Assembly: GCA_041572575.1 (NCBI GenBank)
Contig: JBFFSH010000043.1
Span: forward strand, 1-20,337
DNA length: 20,337 nt
DNA from: Thermodesulfobacteriota bacterium
Lineage (GTDB): Bacteria; Desulfobacterota_D; UBA1144; Nemesobacterales; N074bin48
Direction: 5' to 3'
Below the pieces are notes generated by a model. It worked only from the letters and a program-made list of their open reading frames with translations, was not told the origin of the DNA and searched no databases. Each line of letters opens with the position of its first letter. The stretch's first letter is position 1. This document shows, in pieces, positions 3,907-13,661 of the stretch. The translations under genes and the position numbers were made by a program.

Positions 3907-4803
3907 ATGAAAAACAAGAGAAAAATCGACAAGCTTATTACAGAATCAGTAAACCCGGATACGGTTGATATAGATATATCATCTACGAGCAGGATAATAA
4001 AACTAATCTCGGATGAAGACCGTAAAATATCAAAAGCGGTTTATGAGCAAAGAAAATTAATAGAGGCAGCGATTGAGCTAATTTATAAAAGAATTAAACA
4101 AGGTGGCAGGATATTTTTTGTAGGTGCCGGCACAAGCGGCAGGCTTGGGGTTATTGAAGCAGCTGAATGTCCGCCTACTTTCGGGACATCACCAAATCTT
4201 GTTCAGGCTATTATGGCAGGTGGTAATAGAGCTGTATTTCACTCTGTGGAAGGCGCAGAGGACTCATACAAAGATAGCCTAGAGCAGCTTGAGAAAAAGA
4301 AGTTTAGCCATAAAGATGTTGTAATTGGAATTGCTGCTAGCAGTTCTACTCCTTTTGTAATAGGAGCAATTGAATATGCCAAAGAACTTAAGGCTTCCAG
4401 TGTACTTATATCTTTCAATCCTACAAAAAAGAGATCGGCTGATATTGTAATATCACCAATACTCGGGCCTGAGGTTATTGTTGGCTCTACAAGAATGAAA
4501 GCAGGTACAGCTACCAAGATGATTCTCAATATGATAACAACAGCAGTGATGATAAAGCTTGGAAAGACATATAAAAACCTTATGGTAGATGTACAACCTA
4601 AATCACTCAAGCTTAGAAGCAGAGCTGTAAGAATAGTAAAACAGCTTGTAGGAACTACAGAGAATAAATCAAAAAGCCTGCTTGAGTCTGCAAACTGGCA
4701 GGTGAAACCTGCAGTAGTTATGGGAATAAAGAAAGTTACATATAACCGTGCAAAAGAGATACTTACACAAAACGATGGTTTTTTAAGAAAGGCACTAAAG
4801 TAG
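3907..4803 (+). CDS. murQ: N-acetylmuramic acid 6-phosphate etherase
   Basis: SIS-domain MurQ motifs: TESVNP, GAGTSGRLG, ECPPTFG, VEGAED, GIAAS, GPEVIVGSTRMKAGTATKMILNMITT, NLMVDV; 298 aa. Confidence 0.97.
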   Translation: MKNKRKIDKLITESVNPDTVDIDISSTSRIIKLISDEDRKISKAVYEQRKLIEAAIELIYKRIKQGGRIFFVGAGTSGRLGVIEAAECPPTFGTSPNLVQAIMAGGNRAVFHSVEGAEDSYKDSLEQLEKKKFSHKDVVIGIAASSSTPFVIGAIEYAKELKASSVLISFNPTKKRSADIVISPILGPEVIVGSTRMKAGTATKMILNMITTAVMIKLGKTYKNLMVDVQPKSLKLRSRAVRIVKQLVGTTENKSKSLLESANWQVKPAVVMGIKKVTYNRAKEILTQNDGFLRKALK

Positions 4804-4821
4804 TTTTTTTATAAAATATTA

Positions 4822-5994
4822 ATGAATCCTATCCTGAATTTATCTAACAAGAAAAAGAAGATTGTAATCGGCCTTATGTCTGGAACTTCTATGGATGGGA
4901 TCGATGCTGCGGTAGTTGAAATTAAAGAAAGCGGTATTAACTCTAAGATCAAACCCCTTGGTTTTGTTTGCAAGAAATACAGTGCCAGAGTAAAAGAAAG
5001 ATTATTAAGTGTAAATGCAAAAACACGGATAGATGAAATTTCAGAACTTAATGTTTTAATATCTAAAGAGTTTGTAAGAACTGCACTTCAGTGTGCTACT
5101 AAATTTGTCTCCGATTCGAGCAAGGTCGATCTAATAGGTTCCCATGGGCAGACCATCTATCATAATCCTCCTTCGAGAAAAATCGGTATACCATCAACTG
5201 TCCAGCTTGGGGATATAGACGTCATCTCTCATAACACAAAAGTCACCACGGTTGGAGATTTCAGATCCAAAGATATAGCCGCTGGAGGTGAGGGGGCTCC
5301 TATCATGCCTTATGTAGACTACATATTGTTTAATAAACAAAGCCCTGTTCTTGTACAAAACATAGGTGGAATTGCCAATGTAACGGTAGTTACCAATAAA
5401 ATGGAGGAAATGATAGCTTTTGATACAGGCCCGGGAAATATGCTTATGGATAATATGGTTAGGCTGTATTCAGAAGGTAAAAAACTATTCGATAAAAACG
5501 GAGCAATTGCCCGTGCCGGAAATATTAATCATAAACTGCTCGAATCATTACTTTTAGAGGAGTACTACAGACTAAAACCTCCAAAGTCTACCGGAGCAGA
5601 AAAATTTGGTTCTATTATGGTAAAGAAATTATATAAACAAGTTATTAGTAATAAAATTAGATATGAAGATATGCTAAGAACTCTGCTCCAGCTTACTGTA
5701 GAGACATTAGCGCTGGCTTATGAAAAATTTATTATTCCAAAATATCATCCCCAAAAAGTCATTTTAAGCGGTGGCGGTGCCAAGAACTTATTCATGTTAA
5801 GTGAGCTTAAAAAAAGGCTTGGTGATATGGATATATTAACATCCGACGATTTTGGTATTCCCTCGGATGCCAAAGAAGCAATAGGGATGGCAGTTCTGGC
5901 AAATGAGATTATATCGGGTAACAAGACCAATATTCCTTCATGCACAGGGGCAAAGGTAAAAGTACCTCTTGGAAAAATATCATACAGTTTTTAA
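4822..5994 (+). CDS. anmK: Anhydro-N-acetylmuramic acid kinase
   Basis: Motifs IGLMSGTSMDGID, GSHGQT, DFRxxDIAAGGEGAP, NIGGIAN, FDTGPGN, PPKSTG, GGGAKN, KEA, TGA. Confidence 0.97.
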   Translation: MNPILNLSNKKKKIVIGLMSGTSMDGIDAAVVEIKESGINSKIKPLGFVCKKYSARVKERLLSVNAKTRIDEISELNVLISKEFVRTALQCATKFVSDSSKVDLIGSHGQTIYHNPPSRKIGIPSTVQLGDIDVISHNTKVTTVGDFRSKDIAAGGEGAPIMPYVDYILFNKQSPVLVQNIGGIANVTVVTNKMEEMIAFDTGPGNMLMDNMVRLYSEGKKLFDKNGAIARAGNINHKLLESLLLEEYYRLKPPKSTGAEKFGSIMVKKLYKQVISNKIRYEDMLRTLLQLTVETLALAYEKFIIPKYHPQKVILSGGGAKNLFMLSELKKRLGDMDILTSDDFGIPSDAKEAIGMAVLANEIISGNKTNIPSCTGAKVKVPLGKISYSF

Positions 5995-6003
5995 CATCAA
6001 TAA

Positions 6004-7752
6004 ATGGATAATATTATAAATTCATTTGCAGCTGTAGATTGGGTAATTATTCTCTCATACCTTGTAGTCACAATTGGAATTGGCCTGTATTTTACCAAAA
6101 GAGCAAGCTCAAACATAACAGACTACTTTGTTTCAGGTAGGAACCTGCCATGGTGGCTTCTTGGCACATCGATGGTTGCTACCACATTTGCAGCAGACAC
6201 CCCGCTTGTAATCACAGGCTGGGTGCGCACCGAGGGGATTTGGAAAAACTGGTTTTGGTGGAACTACATTTTTGGTCATGTGCTTGCTGTATTTCTTTTT
6301 TCAAGGCTTTGGAGAAGGGCAGAGGTACTCACTGATAATGAATTTATCGAGCTTCGCTACAGCGGAAAACCGGCAGCATTTTTAAGAGGATTCAAGGCTC
6401 TTTATTTTTCCACACTGTTTAATTTTATTGTAATGGGCTGGGTTATAAGTGCCATGGCCAAAGTGTTTTCCGTCTTTTTTGGAGTGGATACTTATGCAGC
6501 CGTTGTTGTCTGCCTTGTAATTGCAGTAACATACACGGCACTTTCTGGAATTTGGGGAGTGGCTATAACAGATTTTTTACAGTATATAATTGCTATTATT
6601 GGCTCGGTAATTCTAGTCCACTTTGTAATTAGCTCACCTGATATAGGCGGGTACTCCGGGTTTCTTTCAAGGCTTGGCGAAGTGGAGGGAAACCTTAAAT
6701 TTTTTATGACCCCTGAGACAGGCACTCCTGTTTCAGATGGATTTTTATCCTCAAGCTTCTTTTCCTTTCTGGTATTTATAAGTGTTATATGGTGGTCATC
6801 GCATAATGCAGATGGAGGCGGTTACATAATCCAAAGAATGTCCTCAGCAAAGAATGAAAACCATGCCGTTGCCGGCACTGCGTGGTTTGTTATAAACCAT
6901 TATATAATAAGGCTCTGGCCGTGGGTGCTTGTGGCTGTAGCATCGCTTCTTGTATTTCCATATGCAGAGCACAAGGATGCTGATCAGGAGATTTATTACC
7001 TTTTGATGATTAAGAAGTTTTTAGGCCCAGGGCTGCAGGGGCTTCTGTTTGTCACATTTTTGGCTGCTTTTATGTCTACAATCACAACTCACCTTAACTG
7101 GGGGTCGTCTTATCTTGTAAATGACATATACAAGAGATTTATTGATAAAAACGGCTCAGACAGACGTTATGTGCTTGTATCGAGGATATTTACAATAGTA
7201 ATAACCATACTTGCCGGAATATTTGCCCTGTATATTAAAAATATTGGAAAGGCATGGATTTTCCTTTGGGCAATGAGTGCCGGAATAGGGCTTGTTCTCA
7301 TTCTCAGGTGGTTTTGGTGGAGAATTAATGCATGGTCCGAAATTTCTGCGCTTGCAAGCTCCATTATCACAATTATAGCAATGATATTGTATACCAATTT
7401 AAAAGGAATATCCCTCGAACTAAAGCATCAGGTAATTGTAATACCTATTTCAATCACCACCTGGGTTATTACTACTTATCTTACTGCCCCTGAGCCGACT
7501 CAAAGACTACAATCCTTTTATAACAAAATTAGACCCTGGGGTTTTTGGGGGCCTGTAAGTACTAACAATGAAAACAAAGAACCGTTAACCGATCTTCTGC
7601 TTAACTGGGTATTAGGCATATGTGTAGTAATAAGCGGTATGTTAGGAGTGGGTAAACTGTTATTAGGTCAGTTTGGTTTAGGATTTATATTATTTATAAT
7701 TTCAGTCTTCTGTTCCTTTATTCTTTATTATAGAATTTTTAAAATAAAGTAG
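6004..7752 (+). CDS. Sodium:solute symporter (SSS/SLC5 family), substrate unknown
   Basis: Motifs DYFVSGRNLPWW, SMVATTFAAD, EFIELRYSG, QRMSSAKNE, GLxGLL...AAFMSTITTHLNWGSSYLVNDIYKRF, RWFWWRINAWSE, with many hydrophobic TM segments. It starts 9 nt after anmK. Confidence 0.93.
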   Translation: MDNIINSFAAVDWVIILSYLVVTIGIGLYFTKRASSNITDYFVSGRNLPWWLLGTSMVATTFAADTPLVITGWVRTEGIWKNWFWWNYIFGHVLAVFLFSRLWRRAEVLTDNEFIELRYSGKPAAFLRGFKALYFSTLFNFIVMGWVISAMAKVFSVFFGVDTYAAVVVCLVIAVTYTALSGIWGVAITDFLQYIIAIIGSVILVHFVISSPDIGGYSGFLSRLGEVEGNLKFFMTPETGTPVSDGFLSSSFFSFLVFISVIWWSSHNADGGGYIIQRMSSAKNENHAVAGTAWFVINHYIIRLWPWVLVAVASLLVFPYAEHKDADQEIYYLLMIKKFLGPGLQGLLFVTFLAAFMSTITTHLNWGSSYLVNDIYKRFIDKNGSDRRYVLVSRIFTIVITILAGIFALYIKNIGKAWIFLWAMSAGIGLVLILRWFWWRINAWSEISALASSIITIIAMILYTNLKGISLELKHQVIVIPISITTWVITTYLTAPEPTQRLQSFYNKIRPWGFWGPVSTNNENKEPLTDLLLNWVLGICVVISGMLGVGKLLLGQFGLGFILFIISVFCSFILYYRIFKIK

Positions 7753-7818: not shown

Positions 7819-8409
7819 ATGGCTATAAAAATTAAAGTACTAAAAGCCCCTGAGCTTACGTTTTTTGAAAAACTTTATTTTCCTCAGATATTAAAAGGGA
7901 TGTTTATCACCCTTAAGCATCTGCTTGGGTCTAAATCGATTACGGTACAGTATCCTGAAGAGGTAAAAGAGCTTCCTCCCAGGTACAGAGGGCTTCATAT
8001 CATGCCTGGGGATGATGATCAAAAAATAAGATGCGTAGCGTGTAAGCTTTGTGAGGTAGCATGCCCCACTCAGGCAATATCAATTGTAGCCGAGCCTGCT
8101 GATGATTATGGTGTTGAAAGAAGACCAAAGATATACAATATCGATTTTATGAGGTGTGTGTTTTGCGGTTTTTGTGTTGAGGCCTGCCCTTGTGATGCAC
8201 TAAGGATGGGTATGAAGTATGAGCTAGCTTCATACAATAGAGCTGGGCTAGTACACACAAAAGAGGTTTTCTTTGAGCCTAGAGTCAGAAGTGAAGCACC
8301 AAGAGACAATGCAAATTTCTTATACGAAATGGGCAAGGGGAAAATCCTCGATTCTCCAGAGGCCGCAGAAAAGGTAAAAGAGTTATCCGGAATTTATACC
8401 CCTAAATAA
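7819..8409 (+). CDS. nuoI: NADH-quinone oxidoreductase subunit I (2x[4Fe-4S])
   Basis: KGMFITLKHL, TVQYPEE, PPRYRGLH, and two ferredoxin motifs CVACKLCEVACP and CVFCGFCVEACP (preceded by IDFMR). Confidence 0.92.
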   Translation: MAIKIKVLKAPELTFFEKLYFPQILKGMFITLKHLLGSKSITVQYPEEVKELPPRYRGLHIMPGDDDQKIRCVACKLCEVACPTQAISIVAEPADDYGVERRPKIYNIDFMRCVFCGFCVEACPCDALRMGMKYELASYNRAGLVHTKEVFFEPRVRSEAPRDNANFLYEMGKGKILDSPEAAEKVKELSGIYTPK

Positions 8410-9115: not shown

Positions 9116-10480
9116 ATGAAAACACTTCTTTTCCCACCAGGTCCTAAGGGATTACCTCTGCTAGGCTCATCATATCATTACTTTACAGACATACTGGGAT
9201 TTTTAACACACATGCGTAAGACTTACGGTGAGATTGCCTTTTTCAGACTTGGAAAACGAAATATATATATGGTAAGTGACCCGGAGATTGTAAAGGATGT
9301 GCTTGTTACTAACAATAAAAACTTTAGTAAGAGCAGGGCGCTTAAAAGGGCAAAGATGGTCGTGGGTGAGGGACTTTTAACAAGTGAGGCAGAAGTTCAT
9401 CTAAAACACAGGCGTATGATTCAGCCCGTGTTCCTTCAAAGAAGAATATCCAAATATGCATCTGTTATGAGCGAGCACTCTCATAGAATATCAGAAAAAT
9501 GGCACGACGGGCAGATATTGGATATGCACAAGGAGATGATGAAGCTTACATTTAGCATTGTAGTAAAAACGCTTTTTAATTCTGATATTGAAAAAGACCC
9601 TGATGAAATTGGAGCAGCGCTTACAGATGTAATGAAGCAGTTTACAAGGCTTGTTTTTCCGTTTTCAGAGTACCTAGATAAACTGCCACTTCCCGGAGTA
9701 AAAAAATGCAATGATGCTCTTGCAAGTCTCGATAGGACTATATATGAGTTCATTTCGGAAAGGCGAGGCAATGAAGACAAATATGATGACCTGCTTTCAC
9801 TGCTTCTCTCTGTAAGAAGTGAAGACAGTGAGAGCGAAGGATTTTCAGATCAACAAATAAGGGATGAAGCGATTACTCTTTTCATTGCAGGGCAGGAGAC
9901 TACGGCAAATTCACTATCATGGTCTCTGTATTTAATATCTCGGCACCCTGGGATTGATGTTAGATTACATGAAGAGATTAGCTCTGTTCTCAGTGGCAGA
10001 CTTCCCAGCATGGACGATTATAACAAACTGCAATACACAAGGATGGTTTTTACTGAAGCCATGAGGCTTTACCCCCCGGCATGGACTGTAGTTAGGAGAG
10101 CACTATCGGATTATCATTTAAAAGATTATATTGTACCGCAGGGTGATGATATATTTATGAGCCAGTATGTGATACAGCGCGATCCTAAATATTATCCAGA
10201 GCCATTAGAATTCAGGCCGGAGCGCTGGGAAAATGATTATATGAAAACAATACCCAAATTTGCGTACTATCCTTTTGGTGGCGGCCCTAGGCTTTGTATT
10301 GGAGAGGGATTTGCCTGGATGGAAGGAGTACTCGTGCTGGCTACAATACTACAGAACTGGAAGATGAATCTTGTTGATAACAAACCGGTTAAGCCTGATC
10401 CGCTTATCACACTAAGGCCAAAGGGCGGGCTTAAAATGCGACTTGAAAAAAGAGTAAGCCAAAGTCTTAACAACTTCTAA
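9116..10480 (+). CDS. Cytochrome P450
   Basis: N-terminal PPGPKGLPLLG, I-helix AGQETT, K-helix EAMRLYPP, FRPERW, and heme-binding PFGGGPRLCIG. Confidence 0.97.
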   Translation: MKTLLFPPGPKGLPLLGSSYHYFTDILGFLTHMRKTYGEIAFFRLGKRNIYMVSDPEIVKDVLVTNNKNFSKSRALKRAKMVVGEGLLTSEAEVHLKHRRMIQPVFLQRRISKYASVMSEHSHRISEKWHDGQILDMHKEMMKLTFSIVVKTLFNSDIEKDPDEIGAALTDVMKQFTRLVFPFSEYLDKLPLPGVKKCNDALASLDRTIYEFISERRGNEDKYDDLLSLLLSVRSEDSESEGFSDQQIRDEAITLFIAGQETTANSLSWSLYLISRHPGIDVRLHEEISSVLSGRLPSMDDYNKLQYTRMVFTEAMRLYPPAWTVVRRALSDYHLKDYIVPQGDDIFMSQYVIQRDPKYYPEPLEFRPERWENDYMKTIPKFAYYPFGGGPRLCIGEGFAWMEGVLVLATILQNWKMNLVDNKPVKPDPLITLRPKGGLKMRLEKRVSQSLNNF

Positions 10481-10828: not shown

Positions 10829-11308
10829 TTAATACCCCTCTTCAATTGCTCTGTCCAGACCTTCGGATTTTATTACTTTCCATTCTCCCAGCTTGGTTTT
10901 CTTGAATGTAATTGTGATGTTTTCATAAGATTCGTCTTGTCCAAGCAAACTAAAGAACATATTGGATTTTTTCCCTTTTATGTTCATGTTCAAATTAGCA
11001 ATAGCTATTTTGCTGCCGTCATCAGACTCATTCATGGTTACAGAGAGGCCATCGTATTTAGTCTCAAACTTATCAAATTTTTCAAAGACTTTTTGAACTA
11101 TGTTTTTAACAACAAAAAACGTAGCACCATACTCGTCTCTATAGTCAAAAGAGACGTGTTCTGTGACTCCTTCAAAATTGCCAGCCTCGCCAGCTGCAAT
11201 CATTTTTTTCAAAACCTTTTCAATTTCTGTAGGATCATCAGATGCAGGCCACAAGAAAAATGCGGCTACGGCGATTATCAAAACCGTTATAATAGATAGA
11301 ATTTTCAT
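10829..11308 (-). CDS. Membrane-anchored hypothetical protein, probable NTF2/SnoaL-like fold
   Basis: N-terminal TM (ILSIITVLIIAVAAFFLW), 'EIEKVLKKMIAAGEAGNFEGVTEHVSFDYRD' helix pattern, beta-rich middle and terminal 'GEWKVIK'. The fold assignment is by pattern only. Confidence 0.7.
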   Translation of the reverse strand: MKILSIITVLIIAVAAFFLWPASDDPTEIEKVLKKMIAAGEAGNFEGVTEHVSFDYRDEYGATFFVVKNIVQKVFEKFDKFETKYDGLSVTMNESDDGSKIAIANLNMNIKGKKSNMFFSLLGQDESYENITITFKKTKLGEWKVIKSEGLDRAIEEGY

Positions 11309-11336
11309 ATTATTAATAATAAAGTATTTATTGGAT

Positions 11337-13661
11337 TTATCTATTGTGGGGGAGAATTTTAAGTGATTTATTTTTCAAAACAACTTTGATCATTCCGTCC
11401 TTGCTTGTCTGATATTTCTTAAATTTATAAGACTCGTTAACAATTTTATCCTTCTTAGTAATTAAAACATCGGGTTTGTATGTTTGTATATAATCAATAG
11501 CTGCATAGTCATTATTCATATATGGTAAGTATATAATCTTCTTTATTTGATCATCTGGATTCTTATCATTAAATATTTTAATACTTTGTTTATAGACACT
11601 AGCATCCGTAATCAATAATCTTAAATTTTCATTTTTAATATTTATGGAAACGCTGTTATCCCCGGACAGCTGAGTACCATTGTTTGGACTAAACTGCATT
11701 GTGATATTGGTTTTGCCAAGGTGAAGTGGTTCATATCCTGTTTGTAAATTTATCCATTTTAAATTGGCGCTTTTTATTTCCTCCCATACTTTGGAGTTTA
11801 ATCTCGCTCCATTTGTCCATAAATAATCGGTATTGAATTTACTTATTAAATGGCTTGTACCTTCTAAAATATCCTCATTTGTTTGAGTTAAAATAATATG
11901 ATCAATTTTGGATATACCGGTTTTTAATAAAAACGGAGTGATAACACTTTTTTCAGTAAAACCATTTTGATTAAATCTGGAAATCCCTCCATTTATAAGG
12001 ATATGTTTTCCACTCTGTGTTCTTATAAATACAGTGTTTCTTGTTCCCGAGTCTAAAAAATAAGCCTCGAAATTTTTATTTGTTATGTCCTTAAAGAATC
12101 CAAAAGAAGCCGAAAATAGAAATAAAAAAATAACAGCCGGGGTTAGTAATTTGAGCCATTTGGATCCGGTAGATATGAATGCAAAAATCAAAAATACAGA
12201 CAAATAGTAAAGAGTCACACTTAAATTGTTTAAATATGGCACGGTAACAGACGCTATATTCAAGCTGGACAGGCTCTGCACAAGAGAGAGTAATAAATTT
12301 ATTAGATGATTGTTTGCTTCTATTAAATAAACTGTGGCAGAGCTGCTAATATGAAACAGTATATAGCTTATAAGCCCCAAGGGGACTATAATAAATTCAA
12401 CAAGTGGTATAAAGATGAGATTTGCAGGAACTGAGAGCAGGGATACTATACCAAACGAGTTAATTATTATGGGAAGCGTAAAGATGGTGGCTATAAACGT
12501 AGTTTTAAGGCTTGTAAGAAGCTTATCTTTAAATGTATATATATTTAGAGGATAGTAGTGGTGTATTGTAAGGATTCCCAAAACTGAGAGAAAGGATAGC
12601 TTGAACGATAGATCATAAATAGCTGATGGATCAATCAGAAGAATTATAAAAGCTGAAGCTAATAGCGTGTTTAGTTTATAGTGAGCTCTTCCAATAATTA
12701 TAGATAGTAAATAGACTACGGCCATTATGGTTGCTCTTATAACAGGAGTCGCAAATCCTGATACAAACATGTAGCAAATGATGGGTAAAATAGTAAGTGC
12801 TGCAGTTATTCTCGGCACATTATAATTAAGCAGCAATCTCTCTGATCTTTTAAGCAGCCAGTCAAAAATAAAATAGAAAATAAGGACAATTGCTCCCAGA
12901 TGAAGACCTGATATGGCTAACAGGTGAGATATTCCAAGAGAAGAAAAACTGTTTCTAATCTCATGTGGGATGCCCTTTTTTTCGCCTATCGTGAGTGCGG
13001 AATAAATTTCACTATTTGGAAAACCAAGGTTTGATCTTATAAACCGTACAAAACCCTCTCTGCTTTTTTCTACTAATTCAAAAAATGAAATTTTTGATGA
13101 AGCCCTTCCAAAAGAAATGATATCTGATTTGTCATCTATAAAACCACTTAGGTAAATCTGTTTTCTCTTATAATAATTTTCAACATCAAAATTGCCAGGG
13201 TTTTTGTAGTTTCTGAACTGCTTAAGTTTAATACCTAATATTCGTATCCTGTGCCCTTTGTAAATGCCGTATAGATGTTCGTTTAGAGTTATCATGACCT
13301 TAACATCGAGGTTATGTCTTTTGCCATCAACCGTGGCCATATTTACATGTAAAAAAAGTCTTGAGCTTTGGTCTCTTCTTTCTACTGGTTTAATCAAGAT
13401 GCCTTCAATATCTACTTTATTGTTTACTAAAAGCTCTAAATCTTTTTCATCCGGTGGGCTATGTGTAGAAAATAGTATTCCGAGCGGAATAAACAGGAGG
13501 TATTTAAAGTTTAATTTATAGTAGGTAAGTAAAACAAGTAAGAAGCTTAAAATAATAATGAATTTAAAATCAAGCTCTATATATTCAGTGCTTATAATCC
13601 CTGTAACAAAAAAAAATAGAGGTGAATATACGGGGTTTCTTAAAAGAAAAGATTTAATCAA
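11337..13661 (-). CDS. comEC: ComEC/Rec2 DNA-uptake channel (OB + competence + degenerate MBL domain)
   Basis: NPGNFDVENYY (end of DUF4131/OB domain), GISHLLAISGLHLG, RATIM, SFKLSFLSV, PANLIFIP, then a beta-lactamase-like C-terminus. The start is uncertain: ATG 13685 (ORF track) or in-frame TTG 13661 overlapping the ispF stop. Confidence 0.9.
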   Translation of the reverse strand: MIKSFLLRNPVYSPLFFFVTGIISTEYIELDFKFIIILSFLLVLLTYYKLNFKYLLFIPLGILFSTHSPPDEKDLELLVNNKVDIEGILIKPVERRDQSSRLFLHVNMATVDGKRHNLDVKVMITLNEHLYGIYKGHRIRILGIKLKQFRNYKNPGNFDVENYYKRKQIYLSGFIDDKSDIISFGRASSKISFFELVEKSREGFVRFIRSNLGFPNSEIYSALTIGEKKGIPHEIRNSFSSLGISHLLAISGLHLGAIVLIFYFIFDWLLKRSERLLLNYNVPRITAALTILPIICYMFVSGFATPVIRATIMAVVYLLSIIIGRAHYKLNTLLASAFIILLIDPSAIYDLSFKLSFLSVLGILTIHHYYPLNIYTFKDKLLTSLKTTFIATIFTLPIIINSFGIVSLLSVPANLIFIPLVEFIIVPLGLISYILFHISSSATVYLIEANNHLINLLLSLVQSLSSLNIASVTVPYLNNLSVTLYYLSVFLIFAFISTGSKWLKLLTPAVIFLFLFSASFGFFKDITNKNFEAYFLDSGTRNTVFIRTQSGKHILINGGISRFNQNGFTEKSVITPFLLKTGISKIDHIILTQTNEDILEGTSHLISKFNTDYLWTNGARLNSKVWEEIKSANLKWINLQTGYEPLHLGKTNITMQFSPNNGTQLSGDNSVSINIKNENLRLLITDASVYKQSIKIFNDKNPDDQIKKIIYLPYMNNDYAAIDYIQTYKPDVLITKKDKIVNESYKFKKYQTSKDGMIKVVLKNKSLKILPHNR

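Follow-up and report, generated by a model that had tools for sequence, protein, structure and literature searches.

The DNA analysed in this study is a window of 20,337 nucleotides, a term which here denotes the whole stretch, from the genome of a marine Thermodesulfobacteriota bacterium (contig JBFFSH010000043.1 of assembly GCA_041572575.1), in which two enzymes for the recycling of cell-wall sugars share one operon with a transporter of the sodium symporter family. As recognised in a previous sequence-only reading, its three genes are oriented alike on the + strand in the order murQ-anmK-SSS, with gaps of 18 and then 9 nucleotides. The first gene, murQ (3907..4803), encodes the N-acetylmuramic acid (MurNAc)-6-phosphate etherase of 298 residues, which scores 356.5 for TIGR00274 (cut-off 302) and 377.8 for NF003915 (cut-off 168), and the second, anmK (4822..5994), the 390-residue kinase of anhydro-MurNAc (anhMurNAc), with a score of 426.5 for NF007148 (cut-off 387) and an E-value of 1.6e-92 for PF03702. 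The third gene (6004..7752) codes for a symporter of 582 residues from the SSS/SLC5 family, a member of what we refer to as the ATTFAADTPL clade. All three identities had been assigned correctly from the letters alone, as MurQ and AnmK exceed curated cut-offs and the symporter matches PF00474. Based on this match, a fold model and its gene context, we predict the latter to import the disaccharide of N-acetylglucosamine (GlcNAc) and anhMurNAc, and it would thus likely replace the permease AmpG.

The operon is bordered by a divergent tRNA-Gly gene, 65 nucleotides upstream, and by nuoI (7819-8409), which begins 66 nucleotides downstream of SSS. Its best-matching named proteins originate from Candidatus Dadabacteria (97% identity), and the window's own genome (G000; 2.6 Mb, 96% complete) is Dadabacteria-like, with the symporter being the only SSS protein found in a search of its sequence. 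A scan for promoters and terminators detected promoter-like sites at chance level (12 against 15.3), and none of the intergenic gaps of the operon contains a terminator-like site. As RNA evidence, contigs assembled from runs X1 and X3 extend over genes and intergenic DNA at equal depth and runs X6 and X9 yield scattered fragments, and the data therefore permit no conclusion on expression or operon ends.

The symporter matches PF00474 with 140.2 bits (gathering score 22.8, E 1e-40) and stays under the cut-offs of TIGR00813 (159.9 against 184) and PanF (80 against 328), with no match to TIGR00901, which describes AmpG, a protein of the major facilitator superfamily (MFS). The generic labelling that had been anticipated is indeed encountered, since database names read sodium:proline symporter, yet the protein scores 119.5 for PutP (TIGR02121), where the cut-off is 515.5; the ESM Atlas offers generic SSS names only, and a plasmid collection contains two distant and uninformative matches. 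An AlphaFold2 model obtained from 78 sequences (pLDDT 95.1, pTM 0.93) displays the LeuT-type helical fold of vSGLT, SGLT1 and SiaT, and its top Foldseek matches are all SSS structures (SGLT2, SGLT1, SiaT and vSGLT; TM-scores of 0.65-0.73, 19-23% identity). In a comparison of profiles, vSGLT is retrieved with an E-value of 8e-64 and SiaT with 6e-38. The clade is characterised by the motif MVATTFAADTPL (residues 57-68; 6172..6207, + strand), which is aligned with the segment in which core helix 1 is unwound. Within this motif, A59 and F62 correspond to A76 and I79 of hSGLT1, and D65, T66 and P67 are specific to the clade. The sequence ATTFAADTPL is present in 93 of 110 related loci, and D65 and P67 are kept in 176 and 181 of 184 homologues from outside the Dadabacteria. 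Besides D65-T66-P67, clade-conserved positions include N82-W83-x-W85-W86, N140 and R303-x-W305-P306-W307. The hSGLT1 residues N78, H83 and E102, which we take to be glucose contacts, are aligned with T61, T66 and W85.

The same alignment locates putative sites for Na+. D190 (6571..6573, + strand; conserved in 179 of the 184 homologues) is equivalent to D204 of the Na3 site of hSGLT1, and the segment S358-T359-I-T361-T362 (7075..7089, + strand) to S392/S393 of Na2 and T395/S396 of Na3, with S358, T359 and T362 found in 181, 179 and 157 of the 184 homologues and position 361 being variable; S358 and T359 thereby represent the pair of hydroxyl residues in core helix 8 that is expected for Na2. 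According to PMC9616851, the Na2 site of hSGLT1 comprises S392 and S393 and its Na3 site D204, T395 and S396. The residues of both sites thus appear intact and suggest a coupling to Na+; as described in PMC7918813, protons rather than Na+ drive some SSS domains. By its sequence the protein would be classified as a sugar-type SSS, and its specificity does not appear to be readable from this source alone.

Conservation of the operon was analysed in 41 genomes, comprising G000 and 40 relatives of its order, which were searched with SSS, AnmK, MurQ and a two-domain GH3 protein, taking the top-scoring group of each list as orthologues and dropping weak paralogue matches. The symporter and the pair of anmK and murQ are found together in 31 genomes and are jointly missing in 8, with two discordant cases, G021 (80% complete), which is without SSS, and G038, in which SSS stands alone. 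Of the 31 genomes with both, 27, distributed over 7 of 8 families, have SSS and anmK on one strand and at most 5 kb apart, a linkage that exceeds chance. Together with the residues of the Na+ sites, it supports the earlier proposal of an importer that is tied to the recycling of peptidoglycan sugars and coupled to Na+, the latter remaining a prediction. The conservation of the neighbourhood that had been suggested as a check is hence observed within the order and is not seen at 73 distant loci of the clade, none of which contains anmK or murQ in flanks of up to 8 kb. The proposed three-gene module is similarly accurate for the window, and the same nagZ-less arrangement is common to G001 and G032, but it is not the usual form, since in 23 genomes a GH3 gene encoding a signal-less NagZ is placed between anmK and SSS, at most 1 kb upstream of the latter. 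It is thus likely that the ancestral module had the order murQ-anmK-nagZ-SSS and that the version in the window is reduced.

Joint absence is observed in three separate places, in family f6, in G003 (family f3) and in G013 (family f7), and because kin are not independent, we count about three joint losses rather than eight. A single deletion poorly explains this co-loss, since SSS in G010 (family f3) is inserted between nuoD and nuoI, 271 kb away from anmK, and in G003, from the same family, nuoD and nuoI are joined and SSS, murQ, anmK and nagZ are all missing. The location of nuoI 3' of SSS in 21 of 30 relative loci illustrates that synteny by itself is weak evidence, but unlike SSS, nuoI has survived the loss of the module in G003 and G006. 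In the window, nuoI is separated from other nuo genes and is followed by a cytochrome P450 adjoining a TPR protein (9116-10480), for which no link to the operon was seen. In family f3, it is located behind nuoABCD, from which it is separated by SSS in G010 (L197, L199); there, a short unit repeated in an ORF-like stretch, with a Cas1-like gene beside it (L197:10398-10808 and 11162-12001), looks by eye like a CRISPR array close to nuoI. Family f6 (G006, G012, G017, G022, G027 and G031) contains the smallest genomes, 1.2-1.6 Mb in size, which lack the module as well as a ROK kinase; G006 is also without Amidase_3, and three genomes of the family retain a GH3 protein with the signal-like N-terminus that is characteristic of its GH3s.

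The search for other components of recycling pathways has defined the enzymatic context of the symporter. AmpG (TIGR00901) was found above cut-off in none of the 41 genomes (best E 1.8e-6), with positive controls being detected, and in G000 neither the canonical nor the distant subtype of AmpG, nor the EIIC component of a phosphotransferase system (PTS), nor a NagX/DUF5009-like protein was identified. The genome thus agrees with the PTS-independence postulated for the module, and the check for ampG and murP recommended alongside has returned neither AmpG nor a PTS EIIC. Members of the AmpD family were found in none of five genomes tested, and the same number contained no Mpl above cut-off, which is consistent with a cargo devoid of peptide. 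Although murQ is present in 32 of the 41 genomes, nagA was not found above cut-off in any of them (best E 1.6e-6, fragments only) with a model sensitive enough to retrieve also the short NagA of Nitrospirota (about E 1e-55), a type for which there is nothing in G000. G000 also shows no match for NagB and no PIG-L/LmbE protein, which is present in four other genomes, and matches to PF01182 in two of five genomes do not distinguish NagB from 6-phosphogluconolactonase. The best amidohydrolase of G000, considered as a substitute for NagA, resembles aminofutalosine and methylthioadenosine deaminases and was rejected. The GlcNAc-6-phosphate (GlcNAc-6P) generated by MurQ is thus left without known exit, which argues against a textbook catabolic scavenging of cell-wall sugars as nutrient, as it was originally stated, and self-recycling and scavenging are indistinguishable here.

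The operon-encoded NagZ of the relatives contains the motif KHFPGHGxxxxDSH, a NagZ signature, and in all seven full-length copies inspected it has no N-terminal signal, with the catalytic domain starting at about residue 11. G000 and G032, whose operons are without nagZ, each carry another single-domain, signal-less NagZ-like GH3 protein; that of G000, on contig C92, contains the motif and scores 204.2 against the NagZ cut-off of 207, its location being assigned from the N-terminus only. G000 further encodes a signal-bearing Amidase_3 protein of the AmiC type, an MltD-like lipoprotein representing a lytic transglycosylase, GlmM (C20), a PMM/PGM protein (C7) and, as far as recognised from sequence, GlmU- and GlmS-like genes. 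A MurNAc auxotrophy as in Tannerella was dismissed, as MurA is present in all five genomes tested, including G000, and so was a ROK kinase as member of the module, since this enzyme, although present in G000, is kept in G003, G013 and G038 and was not found in G002. With respect to a Pseudomonas-type route (AnmK-MupP-AmgK-MurU), APH-family matches were obtained in three of five genomes, and the protein of G000 weakly matches homoserine-kinase models only.

The strongest evidence on function is an in-place exchange of the symporter with AmpG, upstream of nagA, in Nitrospirota, where the clade is present in 22 of 151 sampled genomes. Among these 22, nagA was detected in 17 and anmK in 15, compared with 54 and 78 of the 129 others, and of the two genes only nagA is associated with the clade. 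In the DNA surrounding all 71 Nitrospirota nagA genes, some of it from short contigs, 10 loci contain SSS, 15 canonical AmpG, 17 a distant AmpG-like MFS protein and 29 neither of them, and none contains both. The canonical proteins reach about 500 bits (cut-off 350) in the five cases scanned against NCBIfam and the distant ones about 190 bits, under the cut-off, in the three cases scanned, with the remainder assigned by tblastn; the distant type is present in 17 genomes (e.g. L296:7832-9202, L273:7706-9151 and L284:1583-2986). At the level of this locus, no AmpG-like gene is found near nagA in any of 17 SSS-bearing genomes. The order nagZ-SSS-nagA of G070 and G232 mirrors the order nagZ-ampG-nagA of G103, G133, G148, G180, G204, G216, G240 and G107, and the flanks in the former are 58-66% identical to those in G107. 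This correspondence, in conjunction with the observation that the clade outside the order tracks GlcNAc genes and not anmK, makes GlcNAc-anhMurNAc the likeliest cargo. In a FastTree tree, the symporters of the order form a single clade, with rows of Brocadiales and Marinimicrobia type nearest to it, and since the Nitrospirota row is located on a long branch, we claim neither a transfer nor an order of events.

The 73 distant loci, which originate from many phyla and whose symporters are 37-51% identical, illustrate this preference of the clade for GlcNAc genes over anmK beyond the order. A gene related to amino sugars or peptidoglycan is found near 25 of them, in 23 cases within 2.5 kb, with neighbours comprising GH20, NagA, NagB, NagX, ROK and GalK-type kinases, NamZ, SpoIID and GH3. 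Such matches number 42 in 896 kb, whereas 591 kb of control DNA, drawn from 40 of these genomes, contain 5, a contrast that is inflated by the fact that the neighbour profiles were built from these same loci, and those to ROK and GalK are not necessarily specific for amino sugars. These neighbours provide the basis for the alternative that survives best, albeit as an unlikely one, where the protein would import free GlcNAc as SSS counterpart of NagP, and anhMurNAc and the disaccharide would enter otherwise, for example by a peptide transporter of the ATP-binding cassette (ABC) type. GlcNAc is indeed the common denominator of the distant neighbours (secreted GH20, NagA, NagB, ROK kinases and NagX), L031 constitutes a complete GlcNAc catabolic locus, the Nitrospirota clade goes with nagA and Opp/Dpp-type systems are found in G000. 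However, an import of free GlcNAc would account neither for the exchange with AmpG at precisely the position flanked by nagZ and nagA nor for the co-loss with anmK and murQ in an order without nagA, and the ROK kinase is out of step with the module.

Free anhMurNAc had been named in the sequence-only reading as one of two conceivable cargoes, next to GlcNAc-anhMurNAc, and our results favour the disaccharide in light of the signal-less NagZ partner and the shared slot with AmpG. An import of free anhMurNAc or MurNAc, with direct processing by AnmK and MurQ, which is next in rank and improbable as well, would agree with operons that consist of exactly murQ-anmK-SSS in the window, G001 and G032. 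It would also agree with the nature of anhMurNAc as an N-acetylated sugar acid, as are the SSS cargoes N-acetylneuraminic acid (Neu5Ac; SiaT) and GlcNAc1A (OngIT; PMC9537276), and with the presence near some distant members of secreted NamZ, which according to PMC8054146 releases MurNAc. Yet, these substrates would provide nothing for the signal-less NagZ that is encoded next to the symporter in 23 genomes, anmK and murQ are absent from the fetched flanks of all distant loci and the SSS protein adjoining anmK in G088 belongs to a second, unrelated clade. Moreover, the substrate of AnmK is the anhydro form of MurNAc, and plain MurNAc would thus need another kinase. An unrelated solute such as proline, carried by a protein that is merely syntenic with the mur genes as is nuoI, is very unlikely, since the names in databases, the weak synteny exemplified by nuoI and the unrelated neighbours of two thirds of the distant loci are outweighed by a PutP score far under its cut-off, by a profile and model that are nearest to sugar symporters, by the survival of nuoI but not of SSS upon loss of the module and by the independent linkage to nagA and nagZ in another phylum.

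Taken together, a cargo from the general group of peptidoglycan or GlcNAc-type sugars is very probable. Within this group our assessment leans towards the Na+-driven import of peptide-free GlcNAc-anhMurNAc in place of AmpG and its subsequent cleavage by NagZ in the cytoplasm, with a remainder left for cargoes other than those discussed. In the corresponding mechanism, the lipoprotein lytic transglycosylase and the signal-bearing AmiC-type amidase, whose genes were identified and whose activities we presume, would release the disaccharide in the periplasm. The symporter, as judged from aligned residues and gene context, would transport GlcNAc-anhMurNAc together with one or two Na+ ions, and the signal-less NagZ, which is encoded in the operon of most relatives and on contig C92 of G000, would split it. 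AnmK would then form MurNAc-6-phosphate and MurQ convert this compound into GlcNAc-6P and D-lactate, following the established chemistry of both families; PMC13691567 describes what these two enzymes and NagZ catalyse. As a speculative final step, GlcNAc-6P may leave independently of NagA, most likely by a phosphohexomutase generating GlcNAc-1-phosphate (GlcNAc-1P) for GlmU, or alternatively by some other deacetylase. For mycobacteria, a 2026 study (PMC13691567) reports that muramic acid enters as GlcNAc-1P with its acetyl group retained, by means of unidentified enzymes and transporter. We propose only tentatively, and regard it as rather doubtful at this stage, that the clade constitutes a new family of peptidoglycan-recycling permeases displacing AmpG in several phyla and that Dadabacteria use a third route for muramic acid, with MurQ but without NagA, which channels GlcNAc-6P into UDP-GlcNAc with its acetyl group intact.

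Several observations weigh against the import of the disaccharide. No transport data were found for members of the clade, the operon in the window is without nagZ, with its replacement in G000 falling under the NagZ cut-off (204 against 207), and two Opp/Dpp-type ABC systems in this genome could import muropeptides as YejBEF-YepA does. Within the order, G038 (94% complete) retains SSS without anmK, murQ and nagZ. In Nitrospirota, the Fisher values ignore kinship and thus overstate significance, and the mutual exclusion of AmpG and SSS was established near nagA only, at the level of the locus. Among distant genomes with the clade, 50 of 73 of which were searched, AnmK was found in just 22 and AmpG-like MFS genes occur alongside the clade in 15. 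Finally, 48 of the 73 distant loci are without an amino-sugar neighbour, and several distant members adjoin GH20 or NamZ proteins with signal peptides, which renders a monosaccharide plausible as cargo in these cases.

Some distant members show further arrangements. In P0271, a lipobox-like segment links SSS with an N-acetylmuramoyl-L-alanine amidase (Amidase_3) domain, and in P0172, whose Atlas cluster contains 70 members, mostly from Gemmatimonadota, SSS is fused to a nucleotidyltransferase; both fusions count in favour of the proposed function. As in P0172, SSS is fused to or found beside a nucleotidyltransferase in L055, L056 and L080, with a GalK-type kinase adjacent, a context which looks like a salvage from sugar via sugar-1-phosphate to a nucleoside diphosphate sugar. 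Eleven clusters (P0199 and P0272-P0281; 1444-1481 residues) show the SSS clade, an inner-membrane symporter, connected by a signal-like helix to a TonB-dependent receptor, a barrel of the outer membrane, which may reflect either a real fusion with later cleavage or read-through. The second SSS clade (L119:2655-4052, L017:6426-7859 and other Ignavibacteria loci), which adjoins anmK in G088, is found in tandem with the ATTFAADTPL clade in several Ignavibacteria, and a Cof-type HAD phosphatase with a possible MupP-like role is often the next gene. At L008 (3951-7945) and L011 (5519-7995), a GT2-like gene, a ROK-like protein without clear family and a signal-less SpoIID lytic transglycosylase are located immediately 5' of SSS, which in L008 is followed by NagX.

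What appears to be new, and is well supported by genomic context, is the combination of a known pathway with a known family of transporters. No SSS protein in peptidoglycan recycling was found in the open-access literature searched, supplements not covered, nor in the accessible portions of PMC11509177, PMC13543919, PMC8054146, PMC7918813 and PMC6987092, and, as the sequence-only reading had stated, the literature searched contains no measured substrate. Characterised importers of cell-wall fragments are few, comprising AmpG, Opp/MppA, YejBEF-YepA, the PTS permeases MurP and NagE and MurT, whereas recycling enzymes are present in many lineages that have none of these importers. If our assignment is correct, a clade of Na+ symporters that swaps with AmpG would fill this gap for the Dadabacteria and for a part of the Nitrospirota, and a large family labelled as proline symporter would gain a substrate. 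It would also bear on the published idea of Dadabacteria living on peptidoglycan, for which the choice between self-recycling and scavenging was left open (bioRxiv 10.1101/2020.06.22.165886), in a text whose searchable part contains no mention of anm, mur or symport. The uptake system and the sugar enzymes are present, the NagA exit is not, and family f6 with its small genomes is without the module.

Among known systems, the PTS permeases MurP and NagE and MurT of Tannerella provide inner-membrane routes for MurNAc or GlcNAc; no PTS EIIC was found in G000, and MurT is to our knowledge not an SSS protein. Family and fold are common to the symporter and the sugar transporters vSGLT, hSGLT1/2, SiaT and OngIT, latter two of which illustrate that SSS proteins can carry N-acetylated sugar acids (PMC9537276 for OngIT). 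A precedent for a non-homologous transporter in the role of AmpG, where ampG is absent and the recycling enzymes are kept, is provided by the ABC transporter YejBEF-YepA of Agrobacterium, as described in PMC9790009, which differs by its ATP-driven, multi-subunit and peptide-binding nature and by the retention of AmpD in its hosts. From the E. coli-type route (AmpG-NagZ-AnmK-MurQ), the system described here is distinguished in that AnmK and MurQ are accompanied neither by AmpG and NagA, in 41 genomes, nor by AmpD and Mpl, in five. AmpG itself, the cargo of which is GlcNAc-anhMurNAc with or without peptide (PMC7670621), is unrelated in fold to the SSS/LeuT-type symporter with its predicted coupling to Na+. 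Nevertheless, both share the same predicted task and the same downstream enzymes, and in Nitrospirota both are encountered at the same genomic position, flanked by nagZ and nagA.

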